A program made the position numbers and the translations under genes. DNA of 64,000 nt from a virus. The notes beneath the pieces are model-generated. The model worked only from the letters and a program-made list of their open reading frames with translations. It made no database searches and had not been told where the DNA came from. Positions 1,367 through 17,552 of the stretch are shown piece by piece. Positions within the stretch are counted from its first letter, which is position 1, and the number at the start of each line of letters is the position of its first letter. The stretch lies in IMG/VR virus record IMGVR_UViG_3300010885_040738, positions 1 to 64,000 of that record; one strand, 5' to 3'.

Positions 1367-2155
1367 TTATCCGTCTATCGCACATCCGCAGCCGCTCCCT
1401 TCGTCGGCAAAATTCAAACAGTCAAATTGCCTCGCTTCAACGCGCTCGCGAAGGACACGCAACGTAAGCGGCTTTGTCTTCCCGCCAGTTCGATCACGCA
1501 GGATCGCCACATCCTTGCCTACCATGGCGCGGAACTTTTGTTCGTTTGTTTCCCAGTAGTCAAACACGGCAGGACGCTTCACCAGGAGATTGATAAAGCC
1601 TTTCTGCCCCTGTTTGATACACCCCCCCCCGCAGTTGTCGTGGGCAAAGCCGTCATCATAACTATCGGACGGCTCAATCCCCTTGGCTCGCATGAATGCC
1701 AGCATGTCGGCCTTGGTCTCTTTTTGAGGACCCATTGCAGGAGCCTGCACTTTCCAACCCTTAGCTCGCATCCGCGCTCGAAATCTGACGTACCTGTCAC
1801 GCTCGCCGTATGAAAGCCCCGCACACAGCACCGTGTTCCGACGATTGCAGTTCTCATTGCACCACCGGTCAAGCAATTCCCGCTTCAGGATTCGGCTGCA
1901 AAGGTCTACGCGAGTATTCCCCATCATGCGGTTTTCAAAGAATACATCCCAAGGCGTACGCCCATCAGCAATACGAGTGACCACTACTCCAAGGTCTTCG
2001 CTGGCATCGCCGAGAAAGCGATAAAGGTCGTGGTGCTCAATCAGCGTATCAGCAAACAACAGCGTCACGCTTTTGGTCCCGTGACGGTCAATCAAACGCC
2101 TCGCAGCCACGTAGCTGCACATGCCGCCGCTGAAAGACATGACGAAGCGCGTCAT
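1367..2155 (-). CDS. PAPS-reductase-like PP-loop protein (phage family)
   Basis: SFSGG..S PP-loop, LLFADT..E..DLYRFL, HDNCGGGCIK Cys cluster; start reassigned to ATG 2155. Confidence 0.8.
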   Translation of the reverse strand: MTRFVMSFSGGMCSYVAARRLIDRHGTKSVTLLFADTLIEHHDLYRFLGDASEDLGVVVTRIADGRTPWDVFFENRMMGNTRVDLCSRILKRELLDRWCNENCNRRNTVLCAGLSYGERDRYVRFRARMRAKGWKVQAPAMGPQKETKADMLAFMRAKGIEPSDSYDDGFAHDNCGGGCIKQGQKGFINLLVKRPAVFDYWETNEQKFRAMVGKDVAILRDRTGGKTKPLTLRVLRERVEARQFDCLNFADEGSGCGCAIDG

Positions 2156-2177
2156 TTTCTTGGCTCCCCCATGCGCG

Positions 2178-3254
2178 TCACGGGTACACCCGCAGCACGC
2201 GGAACGGAAGGCCCTGGCGCTTGAAGAACTCGCCCGGCGGATAGGCTTCGTTGAAAGCGTCGAGCGCCGCTGGGTCAGTTGGCCGGAGCGCATCCCGCAT
2301 CTTCTCATACCGAAGCAGCATGTCCGCAGTCTCCCAGCTGGTGCGGCCATCCTGAGCGCGGAAGTAAATCTTGTGGTCTTTCTTCCCTCCGCTGCGGATC
2401 GCCACGCCGGCGCGCACCCCGACGGCTTCCTTGATGCGCTCCTTCACGTCCTCGTACAGAGCGTCCTCCTGCTCAAACCGCTCTTTCACCTGCACGTACT
2501 CAGTGAGCAGCGGCCGGAGATCGTCCGCGTAGGGAAGCTTGTCCTTGTCGCCGGTCTCGCCTTCGCTGCGGAAGATCCCGCCTTGGCAACCTTGCCGCCA
2601 CTGGCAAGTGCCACAACGCTTGTCGTCCGGCTCCAGCCGCTTTGGGGCTTTCTCTTCGTCGCCCAAGGTAGCCCAGAACCGCGCCCCGACGGCCGTGATC
2701 GCCTCGTGAATGTCCAGATTGCGATCTACGCACCAGGCCAGCGGCGGGTTCTTGATGTCGTGGCCATAGGCGCGGTTCCCGACGATGAACTTCCCCCACG
2801 ACAGCCCGCGGCAAAGCATGCCGTGCTGGACCTGGAGCTCGTAGTCCACGATAATCCCGTCGCGTTTCGTCTTGTAGAACATCTCGGGCCCCAGAGCCTT
2901 GATCTCGCCGGCGCCGGTAGTGTCGTGATTCCGGTCCTGCACCTCGCGGTCAATATTGACCAGCAACTCCGGATTGTTCGGGTGGCGGATGGTGCCGATC
3001 TCGGAGAGGATGTCGCCGGTCGCCTCCATGTGCCACTCCGCAATCACCGGCTCCAGAATGCGACCCAAGCGCATCGGCCCGGAGTCGTCCTGCGGGTAGT
3101 CGGCTGGGATGCCGGACTTGTCCAGCCATAATTTTCGCTGACAGCCGTACTTTACCTCCTTCTGCAGGTATGGCTGCAAAAGGCTGGCAATGTCGCTGCC
3201 CCCTATACCGGTCTTCCGGTTATTGAGAAATTCTTGGCGTTCTTGTGCGTTCAT
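2178..3254 (-). CDS. YqaJ-like viral recombinase exonuclease
   Basis: RKTGIGGSD, G..LEP.I, NIDR, EIK, YELQVQHGM motifs. Confidence 0.9.
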   Translation of the reverse strand: MNAQERQEFLNNRKTGIGGSDIASLLQPYLQKEVKYGCQRKLWLDKSGIPADYPQDDSGPMRLGRILEPVIAEWHMEATGDILSEIGTIRHPNNPELLVNIDREVQDRNHDTTGAGEIKALGPEMFYKTKRDGIIVDYELQVQHGMLCRGLSWGKFIVGNRAYGHDIKNPPLAWCVDRNLDIHEAITAVGARFWATLGDEEKAPKRLEPDDKRCGTCQWRQGCQGGIFRSEGETGDKDKLPYADDLRPLLTEYVQVKERFEQEDALYEDVKERIKEAVGVRAGVAIRSGGKKDHKIYFRAQDGRTSWETADMLLRYEKMRDALRPTDPAALDAFNEAYPPGEFFKRQGLPFRVLRVYP

Positions 3255-3308
3255 TTCCTTACCTTTCCGGGGATTTACTGTTTCCAGTCACCCTGTCTCA
3301 CATTCCCA

Positions 3309-3374
3309 ACTCTACACCCCAAAACTGCCCCGTGCAAGATTTTTCTTGCAATACTCAAAGCCGTCGGATAGACT
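3309..3374. promoter_or_regulatory. Back-to-back sigma70-type promoters with a central inverted repeat
   Basis: + strand TTGCAA(3346)-N17-TAGACT; - strand TTGCAC-N17-TAGAGT; TGCAAGA-N4-TCTTGCA at 3333-3350. Confidence 0.7.
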
Positions 3375-3381
3375 TCAAATT

Positions 3382-3546
3382 GTGAAACCTGCAACGAAAG
3401 AGCCGCTGGTTCCGATCGCGACTCGGTTGCCAAAATCCATGGTGGCGGAGATCCGGCGGATAGCCGAAACTACCGACGTCAAGATTCAGGCCCTCGTGCG
3501 AGGATGGATTGCGGTCGGCCTCACGGCTGCGAAAGGTAAAAAGTAA
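3382..3546 (+). CDS. Ribbon-helix-helix DNA-binding protein, probably leaderless
   Basis: VPIATRLPKSMVAEIRRIA..IQALVRGWI RHH pattern; GTG 7 nt after the -10 box. Confidence 0.65.
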   Translation: MKPATKEPLVPIATRLPKSMVAEIRRIAETTDVKIQALVRGWIAVGLTAAKGKK

Positions 3547-5043
3547 ATGACACCCACAATACTGCCCAAGCCCGAATACGGCCGGCTCTACGGCATCACC
3601 CATGACCCTGAAAGCAGATTGCCACTGGCGCGTGTAAAGCGCGTGCTGAAGGTCGGCATCGGCATCCCGAAGGGCCGCGCCATTCAGGTCTTTCTGCATG
3701 ACGACAAATGGCATATTCGACATGGCGCGTGGGAGGCGCAGCAGGGCAGCAATAAGCAGCGTCTGGTGATGAAGACCGTGTTTGTCGGCGGCAAGGACGG
3801 AACCCCGAACACGAAAGAAGCAGCCAAGGCGTTCCACGAGAAGTGGAAAAGCAAGGCAGCCGTCTCCAATCGGCCGCAAAAACAGCCGTGGTTCGGGTTC
3901 ACCGAGCGCAGTGTCACCGAGGACCCCGACACAGGCAAACCGGTTGAGACGTTTGAGCCTGATTTTGACGCGATTGAGGCCCACGGAAATCGCCCTCGCC
4001 GGATTCGCGTTGTCATTACCTCGGACAACCCATTGCGCCAGGCCGACGAGTGGTGGACCGCATCCGAACTGAAGTGCCGCGGCGACGGCCTGATCGCCGA
4101 GCGTGTCCTGTCTGCCGGGTCGGAAAAAGACGAATACTGGAAGATGGCGAAGGCTGCGGGGATGAAAGTCTTTCCGTACACCAAATGCCGTCTGGGCGGG
4201 TGCGAACACGCAGGCGTTGACTGCAAGCAGCACTCGACGCTGGAAATCCAGCTGGCGTACTCGCTCCGCCTCGGTGCCACCGCGTATTTCACGTCGACCG
4301 GCGGCGTCACAGCCAGCCAGTTGCATTCTTCTTTGATTGCGATCCGGGAACCCTTGGAGCGCATGGGCTACGGGATTGTCGGCGCCGAAATGGACCTCGT
4401 TCTCGGCAACTTCAAGGCCAACCACGAGGGCAAGCCGTCCATCCAGCCGTGCGTCAGCCTGGAGCTCACCGCCAATAGCGCCAAAGCTTTAATGGCGACG
4501 ATGAAAGACAGTTCGTGGACTCCGGCCAAACTTGGCTCTGGCGTCCGCATGATCGCCGCCGCCGAAGAGGAAACCATGGAAGACGCCAGCGTTCGCGCCA
4601 GCAGTGTCATGGCGGAGTTTTCCGACGTGCAGGAAGCTGACTTTGATGACGAAGAGCCTGTTGTGGCGGCTGACAATGACGCCTCCGAGACTGCGGCGAA
4701 GGCCGGGCAGGCGACAGTCTCCGGACTCGGGAGCACACTCAAAGCGGCTTTGGCGGCTGAAAGTGCGGGCCCGGTGGCGTCCGGTACCGCTGGCCCGGTA
4801 GCCTCTGCGCCCGCCTTGGTCGCCGACGCTCTCTGGGGCAGCAAAGAATCCATGGCCGCCTCGATGCTGGAGCAGAAGAACCGCGTCGGCTCCGAAGTCT
4901 TTAACGGGTGCCTAGCCACGCTCGGCATCAAACAGATTGACGATCTGGACCACCAGTCCGATACAGTGGTCGCGATGTACGCAGCCGTCAAAAAGCTGGC
5001 CGATGCACCGAAAGCTGGCAAGGCGAAGACAAACCTGTTCTAG
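3547..5043 (+). CDS. Phage Gp3/recombination-directionality-factor-like protein
   Basis: LKCRGDG..A, Cys cluster, CKQHSTLEIQL and YFTSTG..T motifs; lies among recombination genes. Confidence 0.6.
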   Translation: MTPTILPKPEYGRLYGITHDPESRLPLARVKRVLKVGIGIPKGRAIQVFLHDDKWHIRHGAWEAQQGSNKQRLVMKTVFVGGKDGTPNTKEAAKAFHEKWKSKAAVSNRPQKQPWFGFTERSVTEDPDTGKPVETFEPDFDAIEAHGNRPRRIRVVITSDNPLRQADEWWTASELKCRGDGLIAERVLSAGSEKDEYWKMAKAAGMKVFPYTKCRLGGCEHAGVDCKQHSTLEIQLAYSLRLGATAYFTSTGGVTASQLHSSLIAIREPLERMGYGIVGAEMDLVLGNFKANHEGKPSIQPCVSLELTANSAKALMATMKDSSWTPAKLGSGVRMIAAAEEETMEDASVRASSVMAEFSDVQEADFDDEEPVVAADNDASETAAKAGQATVSGLGSTLKAALAAESAGPVASGTAGPVASAPALVADALWGSKESMAASMLEQKNRVGSEVFNGCLATLGIKQIDDLDHQSDTVVAMYAAVKKLADAPKAGKAKTNLF

Positions 5044-8086: not shown

Positions 8087-9628
8087 ATGGCCTTCATTCT
8101 CCGCCCTCACCAGGCCCATGACTTTGAACTGCTGCGCGAAAAGGTGGCAGAACACCGCGCCGTGCTACTGGTGGCTCCTTGCGGCTACGGCAAGGGCGTT
8201 GTAACGACCAAGATCATTGACGGCACGATGAAGAAGGGGAAGCACGTACTTTTTTTGGTACACGGCCGAGACAGAGTCGCGGACATGGAAGACCGCGTAA
8301 CGAAGCTCGGAATTCCCCATGGCATTCTGATGGGATCTCGCCGGCGGGAGCGTCACCACCTTGTCCAGATCGCCAGCAGCGACACCGTGTACCGAATGCC
8401 GCATAAGCCAAAGGCGGATTTGATCATCATTGACGAAACCCACCTTGCGATGAGCCCGACGTTCCGGGCCGTCCTGGACTTCTACCCTGACGCCAAGATA
8501 ATTGGGCTGACCGCTACGCCGGTCCTTGGCAACGGCAAAGGGCTGGGCAAGGCTTCCGGCGGGATCTATGACTCCATGATCGTCGGGCCGTCAGTGAAAG
8601 ACCTCGTAAGCGAAGGGTATCTGGTGGGCTCTCGGGTGATGGCTCCGCCGCCGCCTGCAGAGCTGAAGAATTTGAAGAAGAAAAAGACCGGCGACTTTGA
8701 CGGCGAACAAGGTGCTGCGATTTGCGACAACCGCAAGGTCATCGGCGACATAATCGAGCACTGGAAACTGTACTCCAGGGACCGAAAGACTGCTGTGTTT
8801 GCGTTCAATCAAAAGTACGCTTATCACATTGCCGAGCAGTTTCGCGAACAGGGCATCAACTGGGCCTACGTGGACGCGGACACGCCCGACGGCGACATTC
8901 ATACGCCCGGGACGCGCAAGTTTATCTGGCACCAGTACGACCATGGTGACTTAGTCGGGGTGAGCTCTGTAGGCTGTATTTCTATCGGCTGGGACCATAG
9001 CATCTGCAAAAGCCTGATTTTCGCTGCCAAGACTACCAGTTTCCCGCTGTACCACCAGCGCCTTGGGCGCGGCTCCAGACCGCACAAGGGGTACTCTGAC
9101 TTTCTTGTTTTGGATCATACCGGCAACCTGTACGAGCACGAGGAACAGGGTCCTTACTTTGAGTCCGACATCAAGTGGCAACTGAACGGTGATGGCGTCA
9201 AAAAGCACGACGAAGACGACCCGGCCCCGCGTGTCTCCACATGCAAGCGCCCGCAGCCCATACCTGACGGCGGGGTGCCTTCGTGGTTTAAGGGCCAGAC
9301 GACAAACGGCTACATGCTCTGCTGCTACCTGACTTTCAAGGCCGGACCCCGGGAGTGTCCACGTTGCGGCTTGCCGATTGCTGTTGATCAGCCAGACATC
9401 AAGGTTGAAGACGGTCACCTTGAAGAAATTACGGAGGGCATGAAGCAGGAGGCGGAGGAGAAGCGGGCGCGGATCGCCGAGCACAAGCAAAAATATCTGG
9501 AAATGTATCTGGAGGGCGTACAAAAAAAGTACAAAAGTGGCTGGGCTTCGATAAGATATAAAGCAGAGTTCGGCCAGTGGCCGGCGAGACAGTGGAAGGC
9601 GGAAGCCTTAGAAATGGTGACCGAGTGA
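8087..9628 (+). CDS. Superfamily II DEAD/DEAH helicase (RadD/YejH-like)
   Basis: APCGYGKG, IIDETH, LTATP, QRLGRGSR, LDHTGN motifs and a Zn finger. Confidence 0.9.
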   Translation: MAFILRPHQAHDFELLREKVAEHRAVLLVAPCGYGKGVVTTKIIDGTMKKGKHVLFLVHGRDRVADMEDRVTKLGIPHGILMGSRRRERHHLVQIASSDTVYRMPHKPKADLIIIDETHLAMSPTFRAVLDFYPDAKIIGLTATPVLGNGKGLGKASGGIYDSMIVGPSVKDLVSEGYLVGSRVMAPPPPAELKNLKKKKTGDFDGEQGAAICDNRKVIGDIIEHWKLYSRDRKTAVFAFNQKYAYHIAEQFREQGINWAYVDADTPDGDIHTPGTRKFIWHQYDHGDLVGVSSVGCISIGWDHSICKSLIFAAKTTSFPLYHQRLGRGSRPHKGYSDFLVLDHTGNLYEHEEQGPYFESDIKWQLNGDGVKKHDEDDPAPRVSTCKRPQPIPDGGVPSWFKGQTTNGYMLCCYLTFKAGPRECPRCGLPIAVDQPDIKVEDGHLEEITEGMKQEAEEKRARIAEHKQKYLEMYLEGVQKKYKSGWASIRYKAEFGQWPARQWKAEALEMVTE

Positions 9629-11169: not shown

Positions 11170-11568
11170 ATGACCGCAAACCAGATCACCGCAGAGCTGC
11201 TGATTGAGATCCCGAAGCGATTCCCGAACTCTATTTGCTGGCGGAACAATACCGGCAGCGGCATTGGCATGGCCAGCGTTCGCGCCGCCATCGCCTGCCT
11301 AAAGCGACAGGACTGCAAGGGCGCGCTGGGTCACCTGAAACGTCCGGTTGGGTTTGGGCTGGTGGGAAGCTCGGACATCATCGTTATTATGGCGCCCGGC
11401 GGCCGCTTTGTCGCCGTTGAGGTCAAGGCCGAAGGCGATAAGCAGTCGAACGTACAGTGCTCGTTTGAGGCGAGCGTGACGGCCCTCGGTGGCGCGTATA
11501 TCGTAGCCCGTGACGTTGCGGAATGCCTGGCAGAAATGGAGGCGAAATGTGGATACACGTCCCGTTAG
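11170..11568 (+). CDS. VRR-NUC domain nuclease
   Basis: WRNNTG, GSSDII, FVAVEVK, QS..Q motifs. Confidence 0.8.
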   Translation: MTANQITAELLIEIPKRFPNSICWRNNTGSGIGMASVRAAIACLKRQDCKGALGHLKRPVGFGLVGSSDIIVIMAPGGRFVAVEVKAEGDKQSNVQCSFEASVTALGGAYIVARDVAECLAEMEAKCGYTSR

Positions 11569-13115
11569 AGTGCTCTCCCTCTTCAGTGGCGTCTCCGGAC
11601 TCGGCCTTGGCGTCCGAATCGCTTTACCAGAATCTCGCCACATTTGTTTCGTCGAGAGGGAATTTGCTGCCTGCGAAGTACTGGCAGCGCGCATGGCCGA
11701 TGGATCGCTTGACCCGGCACCCATCTTTACGGATATTACCCAGTTCGACGGCAAGCCGTGGCGTGGACGAGTGGATCTTATCGAAGGGGGCTTCCCATGC
11801 CAAGACCTGTCCGTTGCCGGAAAACGAGCCGGGATCACTGGAAGCCGGTCAGGGCTTTGGGGTGAGTACGTCCGCCTCATTGAAGAAAGCCAGCCCGAAG
11901 CAGCATTCATTGAAAACGTCGGCGGACTACTCTCAAGTCGCACTCTTCTCCACAGATCCGACATACTGGGACACTTCGACGCAATTCGCAGCGCCGCGCA
12001 AACTCCGCAAGAGCGCTGGCACGCTGAAGCTCACATCGAACGCCTTCACCGGCGACTTCTCAAAACACAAGGAATCTCGGCATTGCTCTATGTCCAGTGC
12101 TGCCTGGGAGCGCTGGGTTACGAAAGCGAGGCGGGATTTTTCACGGCGTCAGAAGTCGGGGCCAGTCACAAGCGAGAACGTGTTTTTGTCTTGGCGCATC
12201 GCACCGGCGGAAGGTTCCGGGATATCTGGCGAGACGCAGAGCGGGGTTTGGCGGAGTCCGAACACGAGGGACCATCATGCGGGAGGTCCGCGCCTGCACC
12301 ATCCTCAGCGGCAGGTGGCGCTGGTGGACCAGTCAACCGAGTGGCCGACACCCAGTGTCCCAAATGGCGGCCGGACGACCAACACGACAACAACCAGGGC
12401 GGACGGCAGCAAGCGCCAAGTGGATCTGGGGGCGATAGCTCCGTTGTGGCCAACTATCACGACAAGCGACGGCGGGGCGGAGACAACAACGCAGAAGCAG
12501 GGCCGGGGATCTGGCGGGGGCAATATCCAAGCGGCAGCGAGCCTTTGGCAGACGCCGGCGACGGACTCATTTCGGAGCCGTGGCGGGGACCGTCAGGACG
12601 AGATGGGGCTGGACCAAGAAGCGCGGCACTGGGGGACGCCGACGACGCGGGACTGGAAGGACGGCAGCAGCGCGGACGCGGACTGCGAGACGAACGGGCT
12701 GCTGGGACGTCAGGTGATCCGGAACTGGCCGACACCGACTCCATGGCAACAGGAGGAGTCGCCGGAATCATTCGAGGCGCGGCGGATTCAGCAAAAGGCG
12801 AGGGGGATCAACGGGAACGGGATGGGCGTGCCGCTGGACATGATGGCGACCTGCCTCTTTTCGCCCCAGGCCCCGGAGCAAGCGACTTCTGGCAAGACCT
12901 GCTGGTGCGGCACCCAGAACTGCGACCTGCCATCTCACAGGCGGAGATTGAACGCCTTGTTTGTAACCTGGATGATGAATTGGCCGCTGTTTTGGCTGGC
13001 TCCCGTACCGACCAACTCAGGGCGGCAGGGAATGGCGTTGTATCTCTTCAGGCAGCGTTCGCTTTTGTCACGCTTGCTCGGCAAATCTGCAAGCAATAAA
13101 GGAGCCGCACAATGA
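11547..13115 (+). CDS. Overlapping-frame methyltransferase partner (beta-like) with motif IX and tandem WxTP repeats
   Basis: Stop-free 522-codon frame; RRLNALFVTWMMNWP; SD GGAGG; its stop overlaps the next ATG (ATGA). Confidence 0.75.
   Translation: MWIHVPLECSPSSVASPDSALASESLYQNLATFVSSRGNLLPAKYWQRAWPMDRLTRHPSLRILPSSTASRGVDEWILSKGASHAKTCPLPENEPGSLEAGQGFGVSTSASLKKASPKQHSLKTSADYSQVALFSTDPTYWDTSTQFAAPRKLRKSAGTLKLTSNAFTGDFSKHKESRHCSMSSAAWERWVTKARRDFSRRQKSGPVTSENVFLSWRIAPAEGSGISGETQSGVWRSPNTRDHHAGGPRLHHPQRQVALVDQSTEWPTPSVPNGGRTTNTTTTRADGSKRQVDLGAIAPLWPTITTSDGGAETTTQKQGRGSGGGNIQAAASLWQTPATDSFRSRGGDRQDEMGLDQEARHWGTPTTRDWKDGSSADADCETNGLLGRQVIRNWPTPTPWQQEESPESFEARRIQQKARGINGNGMGVPLDMMATCLFSPQAPEQATSGKTCWCGTQNCDLPSHRRRLNALFVTWMMNWPLFWLAPVPTNSGRQGMALYLFRQRSLLSRLLGKSASNKGAAQ
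11549..13099 (+). CDS. C5 cytosine DNA methyltransferase, catalytic (alpha-like) polypeptide
   Basis: Motifs I (LFSG), IV (GFPCQDLS), VI (ENV), VIII (HKRERVF) and X (GNGVV); no motif IX in this frame. Confidence 0.9.
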   Translation: MDTRPVRVLSLFSGVSGLGLGVRIALPESRHICFVEREFAACEVLAARMADGSLDPAPIFTDITQFDGKPWRGRVDLIEGGFPCQDLSVAGKRAGITGSRSGLWGEYVRLIEESQPEAAFIENVGGLLSSRTLLHRSDILGHFDAIRSAAQTPQERWHAEAHIERLHRRLLKTQGISALLYVQCCLGALGYESEAGFFTASEVGASHKRERVFVLAHRTGGRFRDIWRDAERGLAESEHEGPSCGRSAPAPSSAAGGAGGPVNRVADTQCPKWRPDDQHDNNQGGRQQAPSGSGGDSSVVANYHDKRRRGGDNNAEAGPGIWRGQYPSGSEPLADAGDGLISEPWRGPSGRDGAGPRSAALGDADDAGLEGRQQRGRGLRDERAAGTSGDPELADTDSMATGGVAGIIRGAADSAKGEGDQRERDGRAAGHDGDLPLFAPGPGASDFWQDLLVRHPELRPAISQAEIERLVCNLDDELAAVLAGSRTDQLRAAGNGVVSLQAAFAFVTLARQICKQ

Positions 13116-13690
13116 ACGCCGTATTCCTACGTCTGCCCAATGGCAGCGAAACGAACATCTCCATCTGCACGTCATGCGGGGCCCCGGCGCGAGGCCGAAC
13201 GCAGTTTGACATCTCCGAGAAATGCTGCACATGCTGGGAGTGCGGCGGGCCGCTGACGGCGGAAGAGAAGAAGCACCCAGGGCATTATCATGCGGCGTGT
13301 GATCGGCTACGCAGAGGCACGATGGATCTGGCGCGCTTGGAGAAGGCCACGCTGGTCGAGAATTACGACGGGCCGGTTTACTGTGAGGGCGTCCCAGGCG
13401 GAAGCTACGGCGACGGGTATTTCTCAGACGTTGACGAACTTGAGGATTGTCTCGAAAAGGGCTGTGGCGTAGAGTTCGCCTACTGCTGCACGTCGTCCCG
13501 CGTTGTAGCACTTGACCTTGACGGCATCCTTGAAAACGCTACGCAGGAGTCTTTCGAGGACGCCATTGACCATATTAAAGGCCGCGACTATCTTCAGGCT
13601 GCTGTGGATGCGTTCAACGCAGCAAACGCGAAGTTGTTGAGCTGGGATGTGGACTACTCCCGGAAAGTGAAGGTGGAGCGTGGGAGCTAA
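13112..13690 (+). CDS. Hypothetical Cys-rich phage protein
   Basis: CxxC motifs; translationally coupled to the upstream gene. Confidence 0.65.
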   Translation: MNAVFLRLPNGSETNISICTSCGAPARGRTQFDISEKCCTCWECGGPLTAEEKKHPGHYHAACDRLRRGTMDLARLEKATLVENYDGPVYCEGVPGGSYGDGYFSDVDELEDCLEKGCGVEFAYCCTSSRVVALDLDGILENATQESFEDAIDHIKGRDYLQAAVDAFNAANAKLLSWDVDYSRKVKVERGS

Positions 13691-14345: not shown

Positions 14346-14826
14346 AGGGGAGGGAATGGAAGAAGATGATCTATCAACAAAAGGATTTGGGGGTGACCTG
14401 TGAAATACGAAACACTTGAAGTCATAGCCGTGCTTGCGGCTGCGTATGTTGGGTTCAGGCTAATGTACCGGGCGATCACCGGTGGCTGGGATAAGTCGGA
14501 ACCGAAACTGGAAGATGCGGAAGCGCAGCATGGGACGTCGGAGCCCAATAACGCGGAGCCGTGGTCATGAACGAAAGCCAGCGCTCACAGTTGCGCGAAC
14601 TCATCGCCTACTGCCGGGCGCACGTTGAGACGCCGCTCGGAATCATCTCGAACTCCATGCTCAATGACCTGGCTGCTTTGTCAGGTCGCCAGCGCACGTG
14701 GAAGAAACTGCATCCAGCCGGGATGACCGCATGTGGTCACGCGACCAATAATCGTCACCTCGTCTTGGAACTTTGCGACCAAGCGGAGAAGGTTCTGGAT
14801 CTCCGACCTCTGCTGGTACTGGTCCC

Positions 14827-15555
14827 ATGATCTCAGCAGCCACAATCGAAGCCATCAAGGCGGCCGTGCCGACATACCAACTCGTGTCGGAGTACGTCCG
14901 CCTGCGTAAATCTGGCAACGATTACCTTGGCTGCTGCCCGTTCCACAACGAAAAGACGCCCAGCTTCCGCGTCCACGTGACCGGCGAACGGGCCGGGCTG
15001 TGCAAATGCTTCGGATGCGGGTTTGCCGGCAACCAGATTGATTTCCTGCGCGAGATCGAGCAACTCACGTTTTTGCAGGCGATCCGCCAACTTTCCGAAC
15101 GGTCCGGCATCCCGCTGGATGAGGAGAAGCCAGCGCAGGCGGTGCCGCCAAAGAGTCGAATGCGCCGGATTGCGGATCAGGAAGACGAGGAATGCTGTGA
15201 GTGGTGGTGGAAAACACGTACACAACATATAGTGGCCGAATTAAATCGTGCCGCAAGTGAGGCTGAATGGTTCCCGGTTTCAATATCATGGAGTGATGCT
15301 GGCGAACAGGAATTTGAGGCCCTCGCGCCGATGCCTGACTCGTATGCGTGGGCAGCATGTGTTGGCAGGATCTTTCAGTGGTGCGAGGGTCGGCTGGAAA
15401 GTGGTGACGGCGTGAAGCTGGACAAAGTGGAAAGGATGAGAATGTTCAAAGCGATGGTAACGGCAGGGGATCGGCGGGAGTTCCGAAAAGAGCGTTCAGA
15501 ATTGCGGATGATAGATGGGCTGATTATGGAAGCCTTGGCGGTGGTGCAGTCATGA
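14827..15555 (+). CDS. CHC2 zinc-finger (DnaG N-terminal domain) protein without TOPRIM
   Basis: GCCPFHNEKTPSF...CFGCG motif; unrelated C-terminal half. Confidence 0.85.
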   Translation: MISAATIEAIKAAVPTYQLVSEYVRLRKSGNDYLGCCPFHNEKTPSFRVHVTGERAGLCKCFGCGFAGNQIDFLREIEQLTFLQAIRQLSERSGIPLDEEKPAQAVPPKSRMRRIADQEDEECCEWWWKTRTQHIVAELNRAASEAEWFPVSISWSDAGEQEFEALAPMPDSYAWAACVGRIFQWCEGRLESGDGVKLDKVERMRMFKAMVTAGDRREFRKERSELRMIDGLIMEALAVVQS

Positions 15556-15914
15556 GAACAAAAGACGACGTCCTCGCGGACCCGATAGTTGGCGATCAGG
15601 CTGGGCACCGAGATAAACCAGACAAGCGCGTGACGTTGCGGTTTACTGATGCGACAGGCCAAGAATGTCTGTGGGTGACAACCACAAAAGTAATGACTGT
15701 TCAGAACTGGCGACGGATGATGCGCGGCGCTACCGTCTTGAAGGTGGCGCAGCCATGATGACCTACCCATCTCACGGGCTCAGCATGAAACGCAATTGGG
15801 GCACTGTCAAAAAGTGCCCGCACTGCGTAAAGACGAACATTACTATGACCTGCAAGGATCAGATCACCTGCGGCGGGATCACGTGCAGGGACCTGCAGAA
15901 CAAAAAAGCCGCAC

Positions 15915-17552
15915 GTGACCGAACGGCGGCCAGAAAAGCGCTGCGTGTCGCAGTTCAGGAAGCAGCGTAGACCCTTGACTGCCCTTCTCGAATCTCGCAT
16001 CCAATCTGCCATTGATGGCGGTCCGGAGGACTGCTACGACGGGGAACTGATCCGCGAACTGGCCATTATGGAAGCAGCGGACGAGGAAGACGTTCGACGC
16101 GATGGCCGGGCTGAGATGCAGCGCTGCGTCATGCGGTTCAGCGCGAAGTTTAAGCGGGATTTTTCTGCCAGCCGGTTCAAGAATCTTATAGGCGCGGAAG
16201 CGGCGAGGCTGAAATCAGAAGCACATCGCGCTAGGCAGGAAGAAAAACAGAACCGCGGCGAGGACTGGAAAGACTATCTGGTGATGAAGCCGTCGAAGGA
16301 CGGTGACGGTACCGTAGCACCCTGCGAAGAGTCGGCCATCATCTACTTTACGAATCACGATGACTGGAAGGGCGCTCTTGCGTGGGACGAGTTCACCGCA
16401 GAGCATTCGGTGGTGAGGCCATTGCCGATTGGCGTAAAGCCCGGGCAGCCGCTCGAAGACCATCACGACACACTCATTCAGGCGTGGTTGCAACGTGAGA
16501 CGCGGGAGCCGAAGTGGGCGCTCGACACGGTGCGCCGCGCAGTGGACGTTGTCGCAAAGGCCAGATCATTCCATCCAATCAAGAGATACCTCGAAGGGCT
16601 GCAGCCGTGGGACGGGCGCCAGCGACTGTCAACGTGGCTGGAAAAGTACTGCGGCGCCGGGCCGGCTGAAAGTGACGATTCCCGGGACGCACGAAATTTG
16701 TCAAACTTCATCGCCGCCATCGGCGAACGCTGGTGGATCTCTGCAATCGCCCGCATTTATGAACCAGGGTGCAAAGTTGATCACGTGCTCGTGCTCGAAG
16801 GGCTTAAGGGCATCGGCAAGACGACGCTGGTAGATGTCATCTTCGGCGGTAAATTCGCCATGATCACCGGCGACGTAGCCAGCAAGGACAACCAAATGCT
16901 GCTGTCCACTGGCGTCTGGGGTATTCTCATGGACGAGCTCGATGTTCTCGGCAAATCCGAGATGCGCGCCGTTAAGAGCTGGGTAACGGCGCAGGTCGAG
17001 CGCTTCCGCCCTACATGGGGGCACCGGCACGTCAGTCGCCCTCGGAAGTGCGTTTTCATCGCGACCGTCAATGGCGACGACTGGGCGATGGAAGAAGACC
17101 GGCGCTGGTGGCCGGTCGCATGTAAGGGCAGGTTCGACCTGGATGGGCTCCGCGAGAATCGGGATCAGCTGATGGCGGAGGCATTCCACCGCTACAGCGA
17201 GGGTCAGCGCTGGTACTTGGACCCGAACGAAGACGACCGCCTCATTGAGACGGCGAAAAAAGAGCAGGCGGCTCGTGTTCCGGAGAGCGCCAACGAAGCC
17301 AGCTACATGCGCATGGCCATTGTCGCCGCCTCCGAGAGTTCCACATATCCGAATACGTGTGGGATTGACGAGATCCTGACGAAGCTAAACGTCCCTGTCG
17401 GCGATCAGCGCGACCGTTTAAGCGCCAAGGTCGGCAAGTGCCTCCGCAAACATGGTTGGATACGCACGCGGCCTCGTGACACCGGCACGGGGCAGCAGGT
17501 CACTCGGTATGTTCGACCAGTAGAGGGTTTGGGATTCAGGGAGGTGGAGTAG
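15915..17552 (+). CDS. VirE/VapE-family P-loop helicase (start uncertain)
   Basis: FHPIKRYL..WDG..RL, PGCKVD, GLKGIGKT, MDEL, RRWW motifs. Confidence 0.9.
   Translation: MTERRPEKRCVSQFRKQRRPLTALLESRIQSAIDGGPEDCYDGELIRELAIMEAADEEDVRRDGRAEMQRCVMRFSAKFKRDFSASRFKNLIGAEAARLKSEAHRARQEEKQNRGEDWKDYLVMKPSKDGDGTVAPCEESAIIYFTNHDDWKGALAWDEFTAEHSVVRPLPIGVKPGQPLEDHHDTLIQAWLQRETREPKWALDTVRRAVDVVAKARSFHPIKRYLEGLQPWDGRQRLSTWLEKYCGAGPAESDDSRDARNLSNFIAAIGERWWISAIARIYEPGCKVDHVLVLEGLKGIGKTTLVDVIFGGKFAMITGDVASKDNQMLLSTGVWGILMDELDVLGKSEMRAVKSWVTAQVERFRPTWGHRHVSRPRKCVFIATVNGDDWAMEEDRRWWPVACKGRFDLDGLRENRDQLMAEAFHRYSEGQRWYLDPNEDDRLIETAKKEQAARVPESANEASYMRMAIVAASESSTYPNTCGIDEILTKLNVPVGDQRDRLSAKVGKCLRKHGWIRTRPRDTGTGQQVTRYVRPVEGLGFREVE

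Follow-up and report, generated by a model that had tools for sequence, protein, structure and literature searches.

Two conserved reading frames in one phage gene: a proposed two-chain cytosine-5 DNA methyltransferase

Two open frames and what they encode

The stretch of DNA analysed here, which we call the window, comprises positions 1-64,000 of virus record IMGVR_UViG_3300010885_040738 (64,000 nucleotides; one strand, 5′ to 3′). It contains a gene in which two frames of the same strand are open from one start region onwards: the GTG frame, which matches cytosine-5 (C5) DNA methyltransferases, is referred to below as alpha, and the ATG frame as beta (frames A and B of the original prediction, an earlier reading of this DNA). 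That reading saw a single GGAGG ahead of an ATGTG that supplies both ATG 11547 and GTG 11549, and two frames open for about 1.55 kilobases. Both observations hold: positions 11538-11551 read GGAGGCGAAATGTG (GGAGGCGAAATGTGG), with the Shine-Dalgarno (SD) sequence at 11538-11542, and the two open reading frames (ORFs) specify 522 (beta) and 516 (alpha) amino acids. The third forward frame contains about 20 stops across the gene. The features are as follows.

11538-11542, plus strand: SD sequence GGAGG serving both starts, within the upstream VRR-NUC gene; the sole strong SD ahead of any alpha- or beta-frame start in 11507-12360
11547-13115, plus strand: beta ORF (ATG frame), 522 amino acids, proposed DNA-recognition chain, open to TGA 13113-13115
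11549-13099, plus strand: alpha ORF (GTG frame), 516 amino acids, C5 cytosine methyltransferase catalytic chain, open to TAA 13097-13099
11549-12220, plus strand: alpha catalytic domain, with motif I at 11579-11599, IV at 11789-11806, VI at 11912-11920 and VIII at 12167-12187; model confidence above 90
12275-12845, plus strand: alpha linker (amino acids 243-432), low-complexity and predicted to be disordered, its sequence dictated by the beta modules (ELAD in alpha is WPTP in beta)
12854-12934, plus strand: alpha segment LFAPGP...W...PELRPAIS, kept in the alpha frame, predicted docking site for beta
12998-13078, plus strand: alpha motif X (SRTDQLRAAGNGVVSLQAAFAF)
11547-11564, plus strand: beta N-terminal hexapeptide MWIHVP, whose Trp codon contains the TG used by the alpha start codon; the beta codons vary at their third positions, with radical changes in the alpha residues
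11565-12341, plus strand: beta N-terminal part of about 255 amino acids, stop-free but otherwise unconstrained, mostly low-confidence in the model
12342-12866, plus strand: five beta WxTP modules, putative target-recognition cassettes (A 12342-12446, B 12447-12545, C 12546-12629, D 12630-12725, E 12726-12866)
12936-13004, plus strand: beta motif-IX-like segment SHRRRLNALFVTWMMNWPLFW, a pattern match undetected by Pfam
13014-13082, plus strand: beta C-terminal amphipathic helix (MALYLFRQRSLLSRLLG), lying over alpha motif X; model confidence 90-93, with predicted contacts to alpha residues 24 and 500-508
11170-11568, plus strand: upstream VRR-NUC nuclease gene, whose last 22 nucleotides overlap both starts
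13112-13690, plus strand: downstream ORF of 192 amino acids without a family match, whose ATG 13112 overlaps the beta stop as ATGA

We place the alpha start at GTG 11549 because the resulting N-terminus, VDTRPVRVLSLFSGVSG, aligns with the MD(S/T)... N-termini of homologues; an in-frame GTG further upstream, at 11510, has no SD. In the beta frame only ATG 11547 has one, and none of the beta-frame starts between 11586 and 12324 does. Between 11547 and 11568 all three forward frames code together, for the last seven VRR-NUC codons (stop TAG 11566-11568) and for the opening codons of both beta and alpha.

Alpha carries the methyltransferase motifs in order (I, LFSGVSG; IV, GFPCQD; VI, ENV; VIII, HKRERVF; X, GNGVV). 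It matches PF00145 at E 2.3e-30, its profile matches M.HhaI residues 10-180 at E 4e-30, and its structural model matches M.HhaI, M.HaeIII and DNMT1 at a Foldseek E of about 4e-12. In the AlphaFold2 model, made with 52 aligned sequences, the predicted local distance difference test (pLDDT, the model confidence quoted above) exceeds 90 for residues 1-240, is 32-42 with no secondary structure for residues 243-432, and is 67-97 for residues 433-516. The middle segment is rich in G, R, D and E, and homologues read ELAD/GDGL-type filler of variable length there. Neither a target-recognition domain nor motif IX was found between motifs VIII and X of alpha, and the alpha frame contains no motif IX pattern. 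The earlier description of frame A as holding motifs I-VIII together with X, and as low-complexity just where frame B is structured, is borne out by these motifs and by the low pLDDT of the linker. Between motifs VI and VIII alpha also has an insertion of some 45-60 residues (amino acids 136-180, 11955-12090; HRSDILGHFDAIRSAAQTPQERWHAEAHIERLHRRLL...), which the model renders as long helices and which only about 40-50% of aligned homologues possess.

Beta begins with about 255 Ser/Thr/Pro-rich residues, followed by five W-x-T-P units, SHRRRLNALFVTWMMNWPLFW (RRRLNALFVTWMMNWPLFW) and a helical tail. Its AlphaFold2 model (60 sequences) has pLDDT below 50 over most of residues 1-277, 45-68 over residues 280-400 and 79-93 over residues 401-510, and predicted order and disorder are complementary between the models of the two chains. 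The SHRRRLNALFVTWMMNWPLFW segment follows a pattern, R-R-L-N-x-x-F-V-x-W-M-M-x-W-P-x-x-W, that is nearly invariant among beta homologues and lies at the alpha interface in the complex model described below; its designation as a candidate motif IX is pattern-based.

Beta homologues contain 2-10 WxTP-type units (median 6), and units resembling A-E of the window recur in them in other orders, such as E-A-C, C-E-A-D-IX, C-D-A-IX and B-C-A-E-IX. These orders come from matching to the window's own modules, single-linkage clustering having merged nearly everything into one cluster. Each WxTP unit may set a target. In some called beta homologues, such as P0153 and P0165, the part before the modules is very short or absent; at the loci that encode them, beta may stand as a gene of its own or overlap alpha only in part.

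Conservation of both frames and of the adjoining starts

The +1 frame of the window's 21 other ORFs of at least 300 amino acids contains 5-36 stops each. We compared the gene with 79 related viral loci, 47 of them non-duplicate, whose alpha N-domains are 34-64% identical. In nearly all 79, no stop interrupts the +1 frame along essentially the full length of the alpha ORF, and that frame contains WxTP units together with an LNPxF..W[LM]M segment; the +2 frame is interrupted all along. With expected counts taken from a synonymous-codon shuffle, the 47 loci have, over their first 200 alpha codons, 5 stops in the +1 frame against 120.5 expected, and 251 in the +2 frame against 307 expected; 42 of the 47 have no +1 stop at all. 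Two of the five stops (in L056 and L069, those checked) are a TGA directly before the beta start, at loci where alpha starts 4 nucleotides upstream. L056 is a short family member, with 262 amino acids in alpha and 259 in beta. Over the beta module region, compared in 29 loci, it is the alpha frame that is depleted (3 stops against 93 expected), the third frame having 126 against 116 expected. When the window's own first 200 alpha codons are shuffled, no +1 stop appears in 2% of trials, and flanking ORFs of the same contigs have on average 2.4 +1 stops per 100 codons, with none in 1 of 82. Two-frame conservation in homologues had been named as a check on the original prediction, and the counts provide it; the whole-gene overlap and shared initiation site, seen there as unusual, turn out to be conserved traits of the viral relatives and not the work of chance.

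The same layout extends to bacterial genomes. A scan of 185,579 species genomes yielded 80 C5-methylase loci, of which 36, among the closer relatives, lack any +1 stop in 170 codons; about 28 of these show beta features by a table count. They come from Sphingomonadales, Acidobacteriota, Myxococcus, Pseudomonas, Paraburkholderia, Bradyrhizobium, Geobacter, Leptospira, Treponema and others. The remaining 44 have 1-6 +1 stops in 170 codons and almost no beta features (one single WxTP hit). These 44, mostly lower-ranked and more distant, resemble C5 methylases of the ordinary single-frame kind and provide a natural control. The open second frame is characteristic of a clade, and neither PF00145 genes in general nor composition account for it. 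A compositional artefact is rejected on the frame-specific depletion of stops together with its lack in the more distant C5 methylase loci, and an assembly error on the same layout in an independent contig, L081.

L081 is a metagenome contig from a close relative, with N and C parts nearly identical to those of the window. Its mid-gene insertions of 9, 114, 132, 9 and 3 nucleotides are all multiples of three (267 extra bases) and include whole-unit cassettes in frame, and both frames are still open (605 and 611 amino acids). In the N part the two sequences differ by nine substitutions: in beta all nine are non-synonymous and several are radical, and in alpha three are silent and the rest conservative. 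The first 255 or so beta codons are therefore kept open but otherwise free to vary.

The start region is conserved as well. About 30 loci have NTGTGG at the starts, like the window; in most others alpha starts 4 nucleotides upstream or 5 nucleotides downstream of the beta start, so that nearly all loci have the two starts 2-5 nucleotides apart, and the TG in the alpha start codon always belongs to a conserved tryptophan codon of beta. At its N-terminus beta has the consensus M(x)W[LIV][YHF][VIL]P, with third codon positions that vary freely (CTC/CTG/CTA/CTT, TAC/CAC, GTC/ATC/CTA, CCN), and the alpha residues read from the same bases undergo radical changes (A/D, L/T/V, R/P/H). Of the 219 gene-finder-called beta homologues, 145 begin with this N-terminus. 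The hexapeptide is conserved at the protein level.

Along the gene, the frame under codon-level selection switches from alpha to beta to alpha to beta to alpha on the same DNA. On window coordinates, conservation is higher in alpha than in beta in 11547-12220, 12852-12941 and 12987-13076 (motif X), and higher in beta in about 12260-12850 (peaking at 0.83-0.87 against 0.37-0.43 in 12537-12626) and in 12942-12986 (the motif-IX-like segment). These profiles were built from different homologue sets, and for that reason the test was repeated on identical DNA segments. In module C, nucleotide entropy at beta codon positions 1, 2 and 3 is 0.40, 0.28 and 0.89, and mean amino acid identity is 0.85 in beta against 0.47 in alpha; in the motif IX segment the entropies are 0.89, 0.90 and 1.21 and the identities 0.57 and 0.38. 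Alpha motifs IV, VIII and X and the LFAPGP segment are instead most variable at alpha position 3, with identities of 0.50-0.58 in alpha against 0.26-0.32 in beta. Because each segment was picked for similarity in its own frame, the identities are biased, but the wobble position is not.

A proposed two-chain enzyme and its alternatives

The original prediction had also suggested a heterodimer model as a check. When we modelled full-length alpha with beta residues 250-522, the best of three controls scored 0.02 and the pair itself had a complex score (ipSAE) of 0.86. Among 80 solved complexes 58 came up to that mark, and among 110 mismatched pairs 2 did so; this calibration is only rough here, as our own alignments were used. 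Runs agree in at least 48% of contacts, and the pLDDT of the partner is at least 49. The predicted interface joins alpha residues 15-53, 197-208 and 435-508 to beta residues 461-514, which comprise the motif-IX-like segment and the C-terminal helix. The model favours binding of beta to alpha.

We consider it probable, in agreement with the original prediction, that in the window's gene translation of one mRNA stretch behind a single SD yields two polypeptides, which jointly constitute a single orphan phage DNA (cytosine-5) methyltransferase. Alpha would be initiated at GTG 11549 and interrupted by a disordered loop of about 190 residues with no role of its own but to keep the frame open. Beta would be initiated at ATG 11547, its roughly 255 unconstrained codons being translated first; the rest of it would be the small DNA-recognition part, consisting of the five WxTP modules, the motif-IX-like segment and the C-terminal helix, and would dock on N- and C-terminal elements of alpha. 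With both chains translated and bound to each other, the modules would set the specificity and phage DNA would be protected from host restriction. That the shared start fixes the stoichiometry of the subunits is speculation.

A more far-reaching version we put forward tentatively, judging it to fall a little short of an even call. Here the gene would be obligately and fully dual-coded, with two chains of about 520 amino acids starting 2 nucleotides apart behind one SD. Beta residues 1 to about 255 would be a leader constrained only by stop avoidance and by MW[LI][YH][VI]P, and swappable WxTP cassettes would make the enzyme multispecific against host restriction. Phage and prophage methylase genes annotated as one protein, either methylase or 'hypothetical protein', would then contain the same hidden gene in tens of thousands of cases.

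Several points weigh against the two-chain proposal. Translation of either chain is a prediction from sequence. The complex score may reflect the likeness of the joined chains to solved single-chain C5 methylases, and the beta partner's own fold is uncertain in the model. Pfam gives no match for the window's beta and no PF00145 match for ten beta C-termini at E up to 10; a beta profile searched against PDB sequences returns spurious matches only (E 0.08 or above), with motif IX and the modules unrecognised; and the beta model, compared with 48,161 chains, finds no usable fold match (best Z 3.4). The motif IX that the original prediction saw in frame B is a pattern match, nearly invariant in relatives, which the Pfam C5-methylase model does not detect. 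Some 255 translated but unconstrained beta residues would be costly and are unexplained. Finally, the layout is disrupted in a minority of viral relatives: in L008 and L012 an indel exchanges the frames partway through the gene, the alpha linker of L047 contains a stop, and in L071 the N part of alpha is fused to beta modules. These are either decayed or assembly errors. L071 was considered as a single-chain form and rejected: motifs VIII and X are missing from it, and a broken copy with fused frames is the better reading. No single-chain protein bearing PF00145 together with the WxTP module type occurs among the 120 best beta homologues.

The alternative that survives best, which we regard as unlikely, also has two chains, but beta would initiate internally, immediately ahead of the modules. 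The hexapeptide, and the +1 frame that is open across the catalytic domain, would then serve another purpose, or long and short forms of beta would coexist. Such an arrangement has a precedent in M.EcoHK31I, whose beta chain initiates internally and tolerates N-terminal truncation (PMC2836561). The unconstrained and mostly low-confidence N-terminal part of beta fits it and counts against the two-chain proposal as we state it, and a few called beta homologues, P0153 and P0165 among them, lack the long N-terminal part. It offers, however, no explanation for stop avoidance in that part at 42 of 47 loci or for the conserved first six beta codons, and, as noted above, ATG 11547 is the only start in the beta frame with an SD, the possible starts at 11586-12324 having none.

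Programmed ribosomal frameshifting, which the original prediction had kept as an alternative, seems to us very improbable. A single chain would run in alpha through motif VIII, shift to beta for the modules and motif IX, and return to alpha for motif X, and the segments taken in that order do give the canonical sequence of I-VIII, recognition region, IX and X. Yet there is no X XXY YYZ heptamer at 12150-12350 (into beta) or at 12900-13030 (back), and no homopolymer of six or more. Frameshifting needs no open frame outside the part used, yet both frames are open across relatives; and 12854-12934 is constrained in alpha between two beta-constrained parts, so one chain with all the constrained segments would take four shifts.

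Least probable of all, by a small step, is that only alpha is real and that the second frame is a by-product of composition or of constraint on alpha, or the locus a frameshifted pseudogene or assembly error: many motifs in the N-terminal part of beta are indeed shadows of alpha motifs (ENVPGLL in alpha is RTSQVSLL in beta) and beta has no Pfam match, but the variability of module C and motif IX peaks at beta third positions with identities favouring beta, stops are depleted in just one of the two alternative frames, L081 keeps both frames despite its 267 extra bases, and the open frame is missing from more distant C5 methylase loci similar in composition.

Distribution and relation to known methyltransferases

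The two-frame layout is the norm of a very large clade of phages and prophages and not special to the window. Out of 1.84 billion, a profile of beta matches 40,989 cluster representatives with E no higher than 1e-3 and 6,228 with E no higher than 1e-30. None of the 120 best beta homologues has a Pfam domain, and those with a name are called 'hypothetical protein'; an ESM Atlas search returned only unnamed viral clusters. Scans for close relatives found none in viral contigs when started from a single beta protein and none in GTDB genomes when started from a single alpha protein. For the window's contig, the database call is P0123, a 450-amino-acid protein of the beta frame from an internal GTG (11763-13115) with no family, and no alpha protein is among the called proteins.

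The gene lies among a helicase gene (8087-9628), the VRR-NUC gene (11170-11568), a gene for a primase zinc-ribbon protein (14773-15555) and one for a VapE-like primase/helicase (15849-17552). Since its neighbours are replication genes and no adjoining restriction endonuclease gene is evident, we take the methylase to be an orphan methyltransferase within the phage replication module. The beta stop is coupled to the next gene through the ATGA overlap with ATG 13112, as had been predicted. The 192-amino-acid product of that gene (13112-13690) has no Pfam or PHROG match; its cysteine pairs (CTSCG...CCTCWECGG) suggest a possible zinc ribbon.

To our knowledge, same-strand overlaps of 1.5 kilobases with both products functional are almost unknown in bacteria and phages, and we know of only one, much smaller, case in E. 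coli in which such a layout has been proven experimentally. A full-text literature search found no paper on a full-length two-frame methylase family, which is no proof that none exists. Should both chains prove to be produced, the gene would rank with the longest conserved dual-coding genes and would be an abundant one. It bears on how a single ribosome-binding site feeds two frames, and on how disordered filler lets a second gene evolve freely, including by gain and loss of whole cassettes. It also bears on routine annotation, which for the window's contig keeps a truncated beta and misses the methylase and for Burkholderia phage phi1026b records only alpha, and on predicting phage methylation specificity and escape from host restriction.

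The single-chain enzymes M.HhaI and M.HaeIII (PF00145) share all the catalytic motifs with the window's alpha, which matches M.HhaI by profile and both enzymes by fold. They differ in having the large domain, recognition domain and motif IX in one chain, whereas the part corresponding to their small domain is coded in the +1 frame here. The C5 methyltransferases of Bacillus phages SPR, phi3T and rho11s are orphan, multispecific, single-chain enzymes coded in one frame, with several short tandem recognition modules between motifs VIII and IX; the likeness to the 2-10 shuffled WxTP-type units of the beta homologues lies in the tandem modules.

Burkholderia phage phi1026b gp67, a 'DNA methyltransferase' (NC_005284), has the same two-frame layout, its annotated coding sequence being the alpha frame. 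Read in the +1 frame, the gene begins MVWLFIP and contains WxTP modules as well as RRRLNPAFACWLMGWPTWW. It differs in that the beta frame continues in frame into an annotated ParB-like gene to give a 706-amino-acid ORF, whereas the window's beta stops at the unrelated 192-amino-acid ORF. This stop-free beta-ParB frame of 706 amino acids occupies 1498-3618 of the phi1026b locus (L080, NC_005284); sister phage records give it as 'chromosome partitioning protein', and the methylase is missed.

The closest precedent, cited correctly in the original prediction, is M.EcoHK31I of E. coli HK31, which recognises YGGCCR and is a natural alpha/beta C5 methyltransferase (PMC2836561). Its alpha chain has motifs I-VIII, motif X and the target-recognition domain; its beta chain, which provides motif IX, is coded wholly within alpha in another frame, with an internal start to itself, and the enzyme is active only with both chains (PMC2836561). 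Likened by this described layout, the window's gene also has a second ORF in another frame of the alpha gene, conserved and under its own codon-level constraint, with a motif IX-like pattern in it. The differences are that the overlap in the window spans the whole gene (522 codons over 516) with starts 2 nucleotides apart behind one SD, and that the recognition-type modules lie in beta, the interval between motifs VIII and X of alpha being disordered filler.

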